Below are positions 35,529-48,764 of a DNA stretch of 64,000 nucleotides, in pieces. This DNA is from an uncultured Gammaproteobacteria bacterium. Lineage in GTDB: Bacteria; Patescibacteriota; Patescibacteriia; Magasanikbacterales; GWA2-37-8. How positions within the stretch are numbered: position 1 is the stretch's first letter; each line of letters starts with the position of its first letter. A program made the position numbers and the translations under genes. The notes beneath the pieces were generated by a model, which saw only the letters and a list, made by a program, of their open reading frames with translations, was not told the DNA's origin and did no database searches. Location of the stretch: contig CAYOXC010000001.1 in the NCBI GenBank assembly GCA_964407865.1, positions 109,642 to 173,641 on the forward strand, written 5' to 3'.

Positions 35529-37697
35529 TTGCTATTTCTGTCAATTATTTGTATAATTATAATAATTTTCAATTATATGTATTCGTATTTATTGCGTTTT
35601 CTTGGGCTTATTGCCACAGTGGTTTTGCTTTATGTCAATGTTGAAGTTTGGCAGTTTAACTGGTTGTCCTGGGTGGTTTTGGTGATATTTTTTTGGTTGG
35701 CCTCTTCCCATTATGAGGGTGTCATTGTTGAGCGTTTCGGGTTTCGTTCGGGTGTTAGATCAAAAATTCTAGGCGCTTTTATATTATTGGTTGTTTTTGG
35801 CTGCCTAACAGGCATGACAATTGTTTTTTGGACGCTAAATCCAGTCTCTATTGCAATTTCATTGATCATAAGTAGTTTTATTGGTGCAACACTGGCACCA
35901 ATAGAACATATTCAGACAAATGCGCCAGTGGTTGAAGAAGTAGATGGCGGAGCGGTATTAGTTGATAAAAAATCGTATTTAGTGTTTTTTTTCGTTTTTG
36001 CTTTTTTTGGTTTTATAACGCTTTTTTTGTCTTCAAACGAGATTCATTTATTTACTCCATGGCAGACAATTCCCGGTTATTATATTTATCTATATTTTCT
36101 TTTACTTCTTTTATCCGGCGGAATTGTCTTTTCGAATTTTCGAGTTTCAATTATTTTAACAGTTTTAGTAGTGCAATTTTTGCTTGCTTTTTCATATTTG
36201 CCCCTGACTCACAAAATATTTTGGGGGGCTGATGGCTGGAGGCACAAAGCAGTAATTGACAGCATTGTTTCTGGTGAATCGATAGTTATAAAGAATTTTT
36301 CTGAAAACGCCGGTTGGGTAGAAAAAATAAATCCTGGTCTTTTTTCATATAGTCAGTTCTGGGGAATTTTGTCTTCAACTTCAATAATTACCGGTCTTGA
36401 TTCGGTATATTCAATTGCTTGGCTTTTGCCGCTTTTAGCCGGTATTTTACTACCGCTTTTGCTCTACGAAATTGGGCGAGCGCTTCAGTGGACCAGGCGA
36501 AGTTCTTTATTTTTAGCCTGGTTTGGGCTGTTTCCATTTGCGCTACAAATGGTCGGCGCGTTTTCCTTGCCTGTGAGCATGGGTTTTTTAGTATTTTTAC
36601 TTTTTTTGTTATTGCTGATCAGGCGTTCACATGAGAAAAAGAGAGGGCAAATAGCTTTGCTTATCGGACTGATTATTTTATCATTTTTTGGCTATGCTCT
36701 CTTTACAATCCTGATGATATTTAGCTTTGCGGCATTAGAATTAATGAATCTTATTAGATTTAAAAAAGAAAAAAATGAAATTTTTTCTGTGGTAATTGTT
36801 TCTTTGTGCGCGTTATTTATTATTCCGGTCATAGAATTGGTTGCCGGTTATTCGCATTTTAACGGCAGTATTAATTATATTAATTCAGCAACACAGGTTA
36901 TCGGGAATTTTTCGGGATATTTTTTGGCAGATGGACCGCGGCCGCATATCATTGATACTGGAAATGTATTTTTTAATCAGATACCTGTCTATGCCTTTGT
37001 TTCAAACAGTCTAACCTCTTGGCGCTGGTGGATTATAGCTTTTATGGTCCTATTTTTTATAGGAGCGATTATCGGCCTACAAAAAATATTTAAACAAGGG
37101 TCTCAATCTGAAAAATTTTTAGCAGCAACTGGGGCGGGTTTATTTATGAGCTACGTATTAACCAGATATTTTTTGACTGGCGAACATATTCTTAGCCGGC
37201 GTCTGGACGCCACCTTGGCGTTTCTGGCCATATTATTTGTCGTCGCCTCAATAAAATACGCCATCAACCACAATAAGTTCGCCGCCATGTTTTTTGTTTT
37301 GATTATTTCAATTGGAGCAACCGCTTCATACTCGCTCGGTCCCTATAGCCAGGCGATGAGCAGTGATGAATATCGTGCCGCTCAATTTATTTGGACAAAT
37401 ATAAAAAATGATAATAATTTTTGCATTGTGGCTGACACGTATCCGCTCCTCGCGCTCGAAGCAATTTCTCACAAAAAAATTATCGGAGGCGGTTTCCCTA
37501 TAAATGAAAATTTTGCCCAGCCAGAATTAGGTGTTTTATTTGAAGAAATGCGGGTTAGCTCAACTCCGGTTTTATGGCAGAAAGCAAGAGATTTAACAGG
37601 GGCTACATATTGTTACTTGATTATACCAGAGCAAAATAATTCATCAGAAAATGTGTCTTTAGGAAGATTCGGCAGTTTTACTGTATATAGAAATTAA
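35529..37697 (+). CDS. Large polytopic membrane protein of unknown function (possibly GT-C-like).
   Basis: At least 14 hydrophobic segments, with a C-terminal ~200-aa soluble region. I recognise no catalytic motif. Confidence 0.5.
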   Translation: MLFLSIICIIIIIFNYMYSYLLRFLGLIATVVLLYVNVEVWQFNWLSWVVLVIFFWLASSHYEGVIVERFGFRSGVRSKILGAFILLVVFGCLTGMTIVFWTLNPVSIAISLIISSFIGATLAPIEHIQTNAPVVEEVDGGAVLVDKKSYLVFFFVFAFFGFITLFLSSNEIHLFTPWQTIPGYYIYLYFLLLLLSGGIVFSNFRVSIILTVLVVQFLLAFSYLPLTHKIFWGADGWRHKAVIDSIVSGESIVIKNFSENAGWVEKINPGLFSYSQFWGILSSTSIITGLDSVYSIAWLLPLLAGILLPLLLYEIGRALQWTRRSSLFLAWFGLFPFALQMVGAFSLPVSMGFLVFLLFLLLLIRRSHEKKRGQIALLIGLIILSFFGYALFTILMIFSFAALELMNLIRFKKEKNEIFSVVIVSLCALFIIPVIELVAGYSHFNGSINYINSATQVIGNFSGYFLADGPRPHIIDTGNVFFNQIPVYAFVSNSLTSWRWWIIAFMVLFFIGAIIGLQKIFKQGSQSEKFLAATGAGLFMSYVLTRYFLTGEHILSRRLDATLAFLAILFVVASIKYAINHNKFAAMFFVLIISIGATASYSLGPYSQAMSSDEYRAAQFIWTNIKNDNNFCIVADTYPLLALEAISHKKIIGGGFPINENFAQPELGVLFEEMRVSSTPVLWQKARDLTGATYCYLIIPEQNNSSENVSLGRFGSFTVYRN

Positions 37698-46510: not shown

Positions 46511-47362
46511 ATGGAGAATCTTCTTCTACCATCAAAAATTGATTTTCAAGAAGGTGATACGCCTTATAAAGGCACTGTTTCAATTAGTCCCTGTTACTAT
46601 GGCTATGGTACCACTTTGGGCAATGCTTTGCGCCGAGTGCTCCTGTCGTCATTGCCAGGCGCAGCTGTCGAAGCTTTTAAAATCATGGGCGTTCAGCACG
46701 AATTTACAACTGTTGATGGTATCAAGGAAGATGTGGTAGAGATCATGCTTAATTTAAAGCAATTAATTGTTAAAGTACACGCTGACGAACCTGTTGTGCT
46801 TAGTTTGAATAAAAAAGGTGTAGGCATTGTGACGGCAGCTGATTTTGACAAAAATTCAAGTGTTGAAATTATCAACCAGGACCAGGTTATATGCACCCTG
46901 ACTAACGACAAGCCGTTTGAGCTTGAAATTACCGTCGGGCGCGGTAGAGGTTTTAAAACTACAGAAGAAAAGGATCGAAGCGGTTATGATCTCGGTACGA
47001 TCGTTGTTGATTCTATTTATACCCCAATCAGAGATGTGGGATATTCTGTTGAATATACTCGTGTAGGCGATGTTACAAATTTTGAAAAATTAATTTTGTC
47101 TATTGAAACCAACGGTACGGTTACACCACGTCAGGCAGTACTTGAAGCAACCCAGATTTTAATGGACCATTTCACAATATTGTTTGATGAAGCAAAGGTT
47201 ACATCTTTTGATAATAAAAGCAAAAAAGGCAAGAAAGAAGATGAGGCAGAAGAAGATATGAAAAAAGACGAGCAAGAAGAAGGTGGTCAGGGTGAACCAG
47301 AAGAAGAAACCGAAGATAAACCAAAGGCAAAAAAGAAAGCAACAAAGAAAAAAACCAAGTAA
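46511..47362 (+). CDS. rpoA: DNA-directed RNA polymerase alpha subunit. It has the N-terminal domain only, with a charged low-complexity tail in place of the alpha-CTD.
   Basis: The alpha-NTD is conserved (GYGTTLGNALRRVLLSSLPGAA...). The protein is 283 aa and ends in KSKKGKKEDEAEEDMKKDEQEEGGQGEPEEETEDKPKAKKKATKKKTK. Confidence 0.85.
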   Translation: MENLLLPSKIDFQEGDTPYKGTVSISPCYYGYGTTLGNALRRVLLSSLPGAAVEAFKIMGVQHEFTTVDGIKEDVVEIMLNLKQLIVKVHADEPVVLSLNKKGVGIVTAADFDKNSSVEIINQDQVICTLTNDKPFELEITVGRGRGFKTTEEKDRSGYDLGTIVVDSIYTPIRDVGYSVEYTRVGDVTNFEKLILSIETNGTVTPRQAVLEATQILMDHFTILFDEAKVTSFDNKSKKGKKEDEAEEDMKKDEQEEGGQGEPEEETEDKPKAKKKATKKKTK

Positions 47363-47724
47363 TGATATATATGCGACACCAAAAGAGTAAAATTTCTAAG
47401 TTCAAAAGCACGGCTCACAAGAAATCCCTAGCTTCAAATTTGGCTGAGAGTTTGATTTTATATGAAAAAATCACTACCACCAAAACAAAAGCTAAAGCGA
47501 TTAAGTCTGTTGTTGATAAATTAATCACGATCGCAAAGAAAAATAATTTGGCTGCGCGTCGGGAATTGCTTAAAAGACTTCACACCAAGAATGCTGTTAA
47601 AAAGCTTATGGAGGTTCTTGGTCCGAGATACACAGAACGTCGAGGCGGTTACAGCCGTGTGACTTTAGTTTCTGGAAATAGGGTCGGTGACGCAGCTGAT
47701 AAGGCTGTAGTAGAACTCATTTAA
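47362..47724 (+). CDS. rplQ: 50S ribosomal protein L17.
   Basis: MRHQKSKISKFKSTAHKKSLASNLAESLILYEKITTT... An alternative start at 47371 is possible. Confidence 0.85.
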   Translation: MIYMRHQKSKISKFKSTAHKKSLASNLAESLILYEKITTTKTKAKAIKSVVDKLITIAKKNNLAARRELLKRLHTKNAVKKLMEVLGPRYTERRGGYSRVTLVSGNRVGDAADKAVVELI

Positions 47725-47742
47725 TAATTCTTTAGTGTATTT

Positions 47743-48099
47743 ATGCCTAGCAAGAGAAAGAAATTCGATATTGATGCAGCCGGTAAAACACCCGGACGTT
47801 TAGCGACTAAAATCGCTAAAATTTTAATCGGTAAGCATAAAGTTGGATATAGAACACATATTGATAGCGGTGATAAGGTTGTTGTGTCAAACATAAAAGA
47901 AATGATTTTAACAGGTAAGAAAATCGATCAAAAGGTTTATTACAAACACAGCATGCATCCGGGAGGTCTAAAAGCCATGCCGATAAAGAAATTAATGGCA
48001 GAGAAGCCAGATGAAGTACTAAGGCGCGCTGTGGAGAGAATGATACCAAAAAATAAATTAAGAACGCCTAGAATGCTTCGTCTGACATTTAAAAAGTAA
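47743..48099 (+). CDS. rplM: 50S ribosomal protein L13.
   Basis: ...GRLATKIAKILIGKHK...YKHSMHPGGLK... Confidence 0.9.
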   Translation: MPSKRKKFDIDAAGKTPGRLATKIAKILIGKHKVGYRTHIDSGDKVVVSNIKEMILTGKKIDQKVYYKHSMHPGGLKAMPIKKLMAEKPDEVLRRAVERMIPKNKLRTPRMLRLTFKK

Positions 48100-48104
48100 A
48101 ATCT

Positions 48105-48626
48105 ATGGTCACAAAGCCTATTACAAAGAAAGTTGTTAAAAAAACAACTAAAATCACCGAAACTAACAAATCGGCGGTTAAGACTGCTCCAAAAACGATT
48201 ATTAAAAAAGAAGTTAAGTCTGAGAATAAATCGACTAACGGAGAGATGAGCCGTGCAGTTGGACGCAGAAAGCGCGCTTCAGCTAGGGTTAGAATTAGCC
48301 GGGGTAGCGGTGAAATATCTGTAAACGGAGAAGATTTAAAAATTTACTTTCCCTTCTTTGCTTTACAGGAAATTGTCATATCTCCGCTAAAAGCCCTTGG
48401 AAAAGATAAAGATATTACTGTCTCTGTTAAAGTTGCTGGTGGTGGTAAAAAAGGTCAGGCCGAAGCGATTCGCCTAGGTATTGCCCGCGCCCTAGTTGGT
48501 TGGAATGAAGATTTTAAAAAATCGCTCAAAACTTTAGGTTTCTTAACCAGAGATGCAAGAAAGAAAGAACGAAAGAAATTCGGCTTAAAGAAAGCTCGCC
48601 GAGCCCCTCAATGGTCAAAACGGTAA
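48105..48626 (+). CDS. rpsI: 30S ribosomal protein S9 with a ~45-aa Lys/Thr-rich N-terminal extension.
   Basis: AVGRRKRASARVRISRGSG.ISVNG...and the ending KKARRAPQWSKR. The N-terminus is MVTKPITKKVVKKTTKITETNKSAVKTAPKTIIKKEVKSENK. Confidence 0.85.
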   Translation: MVTKPITKKVVKKTTKITETNKSAVKTAPKTIIKKEVKSENKSTNGEMSRAVGRRKRASARVRISRGSGEISVNGEDLKIYFPFFALQEIVISPLKALGKDKDITVSVKVAGGGKKGQAEAIRLGIARALVGWNEDFKKSLKTLGFLTRDARKKERKKFGLKKARRAPQWSKR

Positions 48627-48649
48627 AAAATCTTACACGCAAACTGCCA

Positions 48650-48677
48650 AACACCCTGAGATACGGGGTGTTTTTAG
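48650..48677 (+). terminator. Rho-independent terminator after rpsI.
   Basis: ACACCC-tgagatac-GGGGTGT followed by TTTTT. Confidence 0.65.
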
Positions 48678-48734
48678 TTTGAATAATAGCCGTAAAGATG
48701 ATATTATAGCCATAATATATGGAGAATAGTTATT

Positions 48735-48764
48735 TTATTTCTGGTAGTTGACATGCCGGGTATG
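48735..48764 (+). promoter_or_regulatory. Third copy (right-arm type only) of the start-codon-embedding motif, at the flippase gene.
   Basis: TTATTTCTGGTAGTTGACATGCCGGGTATG. GGAGAATAG at 48721-48729 and a TTGAAT-N17-TATTAT promoter-like pair at 48677-48705 lie upstream. Confidence 0.5.

Follow-up and report, generated by a model that had tools for sequence, protein, structure and literature searches.

A disordered, lysine-tipped tail in the place of the RNA polymerase alpha C-terminal domain in a Magasanikbacteria-like member of the Patescibacteria

In RNA polymerase (RNAP), the alpha subunit, encoded by rpoA, normally ends in a folded C-terminal domain (CTD) that is regarded as the means by which bacteria universally recognise UP elements and carry out class I activation. 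We describe an rpoA gene without this domain in a 64,000-nucleotide stretch of contig CAYOXC010000001.1 (assembly GCA_964407865.1; the whole stretch is called the window below). The gene is functional and is the only rpoA of its bacterium, which belongs to the Patescibacteria, or Candidate Phyla Radiation (CPR), and is Magasanikbacteria-like judging by the names that its closest relatives bear. The folded CTD has been lost in this lineage, and its place is taken by a disordered tail of about 55 residues, in which an acidic spacer leads to a tip of 12-14 residues rich in lysine, a layout that is conserved among relatives. By analogy with known DNA-binding tails, we propose with a probability of roughly 0.55 that this tail may be a disordered tether that binds AT-rich upstream DNA in the manner of HMGA or H1, one that would partly replace the contact between the CTD and the UP element while the docking of activators is lost. 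More tentatively, the same could hold for a large part of the Patescibacteria, where the CTD might have been replaced by a tail of this kind that reads AT-rich upstream DNA independently of activators, its tip being now an AT-hook, now poly-lysine and now absent among lineages a short evolutionary distance apart.

The open reading frame (ORF) is almost certainly a bona fide RpoA orthologue that lacks one family-defining feature, the CTD. It passes the NCBIfam model TIGR02027 (264.2 bits, cut-off 227.8), matching model positions 2-233 of 298, and falls marginally under the cut-off of NF003519 (275.5 versus 277). Taken together, the NCBIfam rpoA models (298-344 positions) cover the protein over model positions 1 to about 250 only. 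The archaeal RpoD model NF001988 scores it well under its cut-off (33.6 bits versus 153). Like the canonical alphas of E. coli, B. subtilis and Thermus, to which it is related over residues 4-235 (phmmer E about 1e-45 to 1e-57), the gene lies between rpsD and rplQ, in the order infA-rpmJ-rpsM-rpsK-rpsD-rpoA-rplQ-rplM-rpsI. E. coli alpha residues 8-242 correspond to query residues 4-235, and query residues 222-256 are where the matches with solved alpha subunits break off. These limits, together with the Pfam matches (Table 1), bear out an earlier note on this DNA, which had claimed that only an N-terminal domain (NTD) of about 228 residues is present. The NTD, which dimerises and nucleates RNAP assembly, is intact: the GNALRR assembly motif is unchanged across 36 homologues, and AlphaFold2, run on a 36-sequence alignment, predicts the domain to be folded.

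Several searches failed to recover a CTD. A Pfam search with the cut-off relaxed to E<=10 gave PF01193 and PF01000 as its only matches in the window RpoA, and none to PF03118. A custom hidden Markov model (HMM) of about 60 alpha-CTDs, with the E. coli CTD as seed and checked against the PDB (193 bits, 94 residues), had no match in the window RpoA or its best 120 homologues (best E 5.7). Six-frame scans with it gave nothing significant either, the best E being 0.12 for the window and 1.1 for 505 kb of flanks at 83 loci that hold this rpoA or its relatives. No CTD-like ORF was found in any frame at these 83 loci. Because PF03118 is readily detected in other Patescibacteria alphas (E 1e-10 to 1e-15 in P0131, P0146, P0160 and relatives), one of whose CTD-bearing rpoA genes was located in the same operon, the negative result for the window is not a failure of sensitivity. 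Nor is there room for a frameshifted downstream CTD, since rplQ abuts or overlaps the rpoA stop codon: in the window it starts on the last base of that codon, and across the 83 loci the spacing runs from -28 to +178 nucleotides. Standing in for read mapping as a check of the reading frame, three independent Logan assemblies (SRR14492170, SRR14492172, SRR14492173) carry the identical 283-residue protein and the same rplQ junction. A CTD hidden within the tail is ruled out by the Pfam search, the custom HMM and the predicted disorder, and a frameshift or nearby split gene by the six-frame scans, the rpoA-rplQ spacing and the three assemblies. The absence of the CTD claimed in the earlier note therefore holds, and the tail is not a leftover of that domain.

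What follows the NTD is the charged string of about 55 residues quoted in the earlier note, which the protein's C-terminus matches exactly (...KSKKGKKEDEAEEDMKKDEQEEGGQGEPEEETEDKPKAKKKATKKKTK). It is built of three parts: KVTSFDNKSKKGKK at residues 229-242, an acidic run at residues 243-269 (EDEAEEDMKKDEQEEGGQGEPEEETED) and the tip at residues 270-283 (KPKAKKKATKKKTK). The first two form a spacer that occupies the place of the interdomain linker and CTD of an ordinary alpha. AlphaFold2 confidence (predicted local distance difference test, pLDDT) is below 50 at residues 237-280. The overall composition of the tail is K 24%, E 23% and A 14%, and its charges are segregated, with a net +8 in the last 12 residues and -8 in the remainder. 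The tip contains a PKAKKK motif and, at 12-14 residues, is far shorter than the lysine-rich domains of the histone H1 type. This arrangement is kept by the best 120 homologues, which average +6.7 +/- 1.1 over the last 12 residues and -7.2 over the tail before them; in 100/120 tails, the terminal positive charge exceeds that of 99% of the tail's own shuffles (p<0.01). Their commonest tips are EKPKAKKKxxKKK and EKPKKKxxKKK, with the general form EEKPK(A/K)KK..KKK. Tail length ranges from 31 to 69 residues across the same set, and aligned identity is 33% in the tail versus 73% in the NTD. We read this pattern as a layout that is probably under selection while the sequence itself drifts. A C-terminus with at least seven K/R in its last 15 residues occurs in one of the 63 window ORFs of at least 90 residues, namely RpoA, which has nine; the tail is thus not the mere lysine bias of an AT-rich genome, and a genome-wide habit of lysine tails was rejected on the same count.

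The architecture is shared across the clade by close relatives, Magasanikbacteria and other Patescibacteria among them. In the best 120 database matches (59-78% identity, 259-307 residues), the only Pfam domains are PF01000 and PF01193, and the RpoA ORFs that could be extracted from 80 species-representative genome loci, Magasanikbacteria-level relatives found by a contig scan, are 262-296 residues long, with the same kind of tail and without a CTD. Loss of the CTD is lineage-specific within the Patescibacteria, other members of which keep PF03118. The best 150 representatives at 50% identity divide into 78 with a CTD, 26 with a lysine tip, 5 with an AT-hook and 41 others, which are mostly truncated or frameshifted entries. 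A neighbor-joining tree of 115 NTD sequences (representatives, five close homologues and E. coli) scatters the CTD-less forms among CTD-bearing CPR-like ones, which hints that the CTD may have been lost more than once. Resolution in that tree is poor, some of the representatives in it are frameshifted or truncated contaminants, and the minimum of 14 changes that Fitch parsimony gives on it comes from a tree too weak to count losses.

Basic alpha tails are not limited to CTD-less forms, as some CTD-retaining alphas also carry extra C-terminal tails (P0260, P0184, P0194, P0186, P0202). P0260 reaches 501 residues with a long K/A/P-rich tail, P0184 ends in ...AAKRRGRKPSR, and in P0194 the stretch KPSKKRKSRSS comes after an acidic run. 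Three entries of 526-664 residues (P0121, P0125, P0127) each contain two stretches that match the query and may be tandem fusions or mis-assemblies.

The tip takes another form in a neighboring clade. AT-hooks bind the minor groove of AT-rich DNA, and syntenic orthologues in this clade end in a canonical one (EEKPKKKRGRPKK), the counterpart of the lysine tip of the window RpoA. When the best 120 matches of a CTD-less representative (P0165, 'Parcubacteria group bacterium') were classified by tail, 42 had a canonical AT-hook, 40 a lysine tip of the window type, 13 an acidic-only or other tail and 10 no tail at all (227-245 residues, e.g. an Uhrbacteria entry), while 15 kept the CTD (e.g. a Doudnabacteria entry). 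The 42 hook-bearing homologues have an acidic spacer and then a terminal (E)EKPKKKRGRPKK. Their consensus, E-E-K-P-K-K-K-R-G-R-P-K-K with the hook KKRGRPKK, lies 3-17 residues from the C-terminus with the acidic spacer ahead of it, and the exact eight-residue hook is kept in tails that are unalignable elsewhere. Degenerate forms (RGRA, RGRK) also occur in relatives, and the lead-in EEKPK(K/A)KK is common to lysine tips and AT-hook tips. Both a tail-less form (P0391, 13 contigs) and an AT-hook form (P0290) sit in the order alaS-infA-(rpmJ)-rpsM-rpsK-rpsD-rpoA-rplQ-rplM-rpsI followed by Polysacc_synt, identical to that of the window, and the same alpha-operon order surrounds tail-less, AT-hook and CTD-bearing rpoA in orthologous loci. 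This shared synteny indicates that the tail-less, AT-hook and lysine-tip forms are alternative states of one orthologous C-terminus.

In the mechanism that we propose, the two disordered tails of each polymerase would act as flexible tethers with spacers of about 40 residues, and their basic tips would make contact with AT-rich DNA upstream of the -35 element, in the minor groove or on the backbone. The tips could thereby supply a generic, UP-element-like boost in affinity, without offering a surface on which class I activators dock. As in tails of the HMGA or CarD type, the acidic spacer would hold the tip in an extended state and may reduce its non-specific binding to DNA; a disordered context with an adjacent acidic segment is the feature of AT-hook and HMGA tails that the window RpoA has. 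Such a polymerase would retain some contact with upstream DNA, which in other bacteria is made by the alpha-CTD reading A/T-rich UP elements upstream of -35 (PMC12641261, PMC10243135), and would lose CTD-dependent control by activators. CRP/FNR-type regulators with the ligand-binding domain are reported to be missing from the CPR clade (PMC12531629), which is consistent with the proposed loss of activator docking. That CTD loss simplifies transcription activation, as the earlier note had suggested, is a reasonable inference, with the qualification that the loss is lineage-specific and that the tail is not indispensable, some relatives being tail-less. The same note had supposed that the tail might make nonspecific DNA contacts. 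Contact with DNA gains indirect support from the spacer-and-tip layout and from the AT-hooks of orthologues, whereas these point to the AT-rich minor groove and so speak against a purely nonspecific mode.

A number of observations weigh against this proposal. The mechanism rests on motif analogy, and the window tail itself, ending in KPKAKKKATKKKTK, has no RGRP core; RGR[PK] is found in 0/120 close homologues. Even in the relatives with hooks, the Pfam AT_hook model (PF02178) stays below threshold (13 bits versus 17.4). The 10/120 tail-less relatives of P0165 are confirmed by operon context, and a few other alphas, including those at loci L069 and L082, have tails that end acidic, so the tip is dispensable in some lineages. 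At five candidate promoters in the window, the AT fraction upstream of -35 is 0.59-0.73 against a background of 0.63, which is no clear excess, and promoter-like sites in the window are not above shuffle expectation. Finally, a separate CTD could lie elsewhere in the genome, the searches having covered the window and the flanks of the 83 loci. As a side observation, the best candidate promoter lies upstream of infA (TTGACG-17-TAATAT), with T6 and A5 tracts ahead of it (ATTTGATTTTTTCCACCAAAAAGGC) that resemble an UP element, a single anecdote.

Known systems offer a precedent for a tethered binder of this type. CarD of M. xanthus consists of an RNAP-binding domain, a disordered acidic segment and RGRP AT-hooks, and it binds AT-rich tracts at -63 and -77 (PMC4374960, PMC8156234). 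According to the same two papers, histone H1 or its lysine-rich tail can take over the function of these AT-hooks. Both CarD and the CPR alphas join an RNAP-linked folded module to a disordered acidic segment and a basic tip, which for CarD has been seen to bind AT-rich upstream DNA, and the exchange of hook and H1 tail in CarD mirrors the alternation of AT-hook and lysine tip in CPR alphas. Some CarD orthologues end in lysine-rich tails that resemble that of H1. CarD differs in being an accessory factor on the beta subunit with four hooks, and there is no sequence homology outside the motif; in the CPR alpha, one hook or one lysine patch forms part of a core subunit, of which each enzyme has two copies. 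For WhiB7, an actinobacterial, sigma-bound activator, solved complexes with RNAP holoenzyme and with sigma-A show an AT-rich motif whose minor groove is occupied by the C-terminal AT-hook of the protein (PMC10243135). Unlike the alpha tail, WhiB7 is a separate iron-sulfur protein on sigma region 4 that is regulated and promoter-specific. The window alpha may thus be likened to tethered AT-binders of the CarD/HMGA type while standing outside those families.

The main rival to a DNA-binding tail is that the tail is a neutral remnant. The CTD would have been lost through genome reduction and relaxed selection, with few or no CTD-dependent activators left, and the tail would be functionless low complexity. 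The low identity and variable length of the tail are what drift would produce, as are the tail-less and acidic-only orthologues. The extremely reduced endosymbionts Hodgkinia and Tremblaya likewise have NTD-only alphas (PMC8321222), and B. subtilis RNAP whose alpha has been cut short at the C-terminus remains able to bind DNA and to form elongation complexes (PMC4495994), with lower expression of genes for ribosome synthesis and for the use of secondary carbon sources. Other window proteins, too, show domain loss or lysine-rich extensions (alaS at 625 residues, ribosomal protein S9 with a 52-residue extension). Against drift stand the charge segregation kept in 100/120 tails and the recurrence of the EKPK(A/K)KK tip, the exact AT-hook in 42 otherwise unalignable tails, which is hard to obtain by drift, and the isolation of RpoA among the 63 window ORFs. 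Weighing these, we consider a neutral remnant unlikely.

A conserved tail could also serve a target other than upstream DNA. The acidic run might mimic nucleic acid and so promote RNAP recycling and selectivity, as in the Bacillus delta subunit with its acidic C-terminal tail, or the lysine tip might attach to nascent RNA, to the ribosome or to a partner protein, NusA for instance. The acidic segment is conserved as well as the basic tip, 13/120 relatives of P0165 have acidic or other tails with no basic tip, and the alpha-CTDs of model bacteria double as protein-docking sites. AT-hooks, however, are DNA minor-groove motifs of the kind that CarD and WhiB7 use on promoter-upstream DNA, and no result here points to a partner or an RNA target, so that this explanation seems rather improbable. 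A CTD encoded by a gene of its own elsewhere in the genome and added to the polymerase in trans is very improbable: nothing positive suggests it beyond the size of the contig, at least 463 kb, of which the window takes up 64 kb, the scans of window and flanks were negative, and a conserved replacement tail speaks against a domain kept in trans. An artefact, in which a frameshift, mis-assembly or pseudogene has cut short a normal rpoA, is suggested by the A-rich runs of the tail coding region, which are prone to sequencing slips, and is refuted by the three assemblies, the same architecture in 120 homologues and 80 genomes, the abutting rplQ and the lack of CTD signal in other frames.

Bare loss of the CTD was known before in this group from one sentence, which states that it 'is also present in Parcubacteria' (PMC8321222); the main text of the source cited there for Parcubacteria (PMC4508563) does not mention RNA polymerase. 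Elsewhere, the alpha sequence has been called 'well conserved throughout the Eubacteria' (PMC4495994). Within the searchable library of literature, we found no description of a replacement tail or of AT-hooks on alpha. The alphas of Hodgkinia and Tremblaya resemble the window protein in being NTD-only products of small-genome, partner-dependent bacteria, but PMC8321222 does not mention in them a conserved charged tail, which the window lineage has (with an AT-hook in its sisters). The Euglena chloroplast alpha (as cited in PMC8321222), archaeal RpoD and eukaryotic Rpb3 are likewise alpha-type platforms without the bacterial CTD; the window protein clearly belongs with the bacterial alphas and differs from these platforms in its C-terminal appendage. 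Canonical RpoA, in turn, has a helix-hairpin-helix CTD for UP elements and class I activators where the window protein has its disordered acidic and lysine-rich tail.

A CTD-less radiation shows what may merit keeping, generic contact with AT-rich upstream DNA, and what can be dropped, activator docking. The CPR enzyme could serve as a natural minimal polymerase for studies of promoter recognition in these bacteria, for which the tail and the alternation of its tip provide a concrete, testable idea. The alternation of AT-hook and lysine tip at one orthologous site would be a natural replicate of the HMGA/H1 domain swaps made in CarD. For annotators, the CTD-less radiation is a warning that rpoA genes of 230-300 residues in these genomes are complete.

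Table 1. Position and supporting evidence of rpoA, its parts and other features of the window
Feature	Position	Strand	Evidence and remarks
rpoA, RNA polymerase alpha subunit, CTD-less form	46511..47362	+	ATG start, 283 residues plus stop codon; ORF list, Pfam, NCBIfam, solved alphas
Alpha-NTD, residues 1-228	46511..47194	+	PF01193 (residues 29-221, E 4.7e-23), split by insert domain
Rpb3/RpoA insert domain PF01000, residues 57-171	46679..47023	+	E 1.7e-30, profile positions 2-119 of 119
Tail spacer, predicted disordered, residues 229-269	47195..47317	+	Basic patch NKSKKGKK, then acidic run EDEAEEDMKKDEQEEGGQGEPEEETED
Lysine-rich C-terminal tip KPKAKKKATKKKTK, residues 270-283	47318..47359	+	Putative DNA-contacting element
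rplQ (L17)	47362..47724	+	PF01196, E 1.9e-30; start overlaps rpoA stop codon
infA, rpmJ, rpsM, rpsK, rpsD (upstream alpha-operon genes)	44376..46493	+	ORF list, Pfam
Candidate promoter upstream of infA	44274..44342	+	TTGACG-17-TAATAT
alaS	41895..43772	+	625 residues; tRNA-synt_2c and tRNA_SAD
GtrA-like membrane protein	43769..44245		
Ribosomal protein S9	48105..48626	+	173 residues; Pfam S9 domain only at residues 53-173
alaS to flippase gene region	41895..48753		
ORF without Pfam match at 1e-5	3542..6916	+	1124 residues; Ser/Thr-rich end
ORF without Pfam match at 1e-5	35529..37697	+	722 residues
Wzy_C (O-antigen ligase-like) and TPR protein	7093..9198		Neighbor of ORF 3542..6916

No tRNA genes or Rfam families, including ribosomal-protein leaders, reached threshold in the window. 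Two long ORFs have no Pfam match, and the Ser/Thr-rich one of them neighbors a gene for an O-antigen ligase-like, TPR-containing protein (Table 1). The first 52 residues of ribosomal protein S9 are a Lys/Thr-rich extension (MVTKPITKKVVKKTTKITETNKSAVKTAPKTIIKKEVKSENK...), and its orthologues in related loci are 134-191 residues long. The alaS product has no Pfam match past tRNA_SAD; in relatives it is 595-622 residues long and occupies the same place, directly upstream of infA. In the window, alaS and the gene for a GtrA-like membrane protein precede the alpha operon, and rplM-rpsI and a gene for a Polysacc_synt flippase come after it; the order from alaS to rpsI and the flippase is kept in distant CTD-less relatives.

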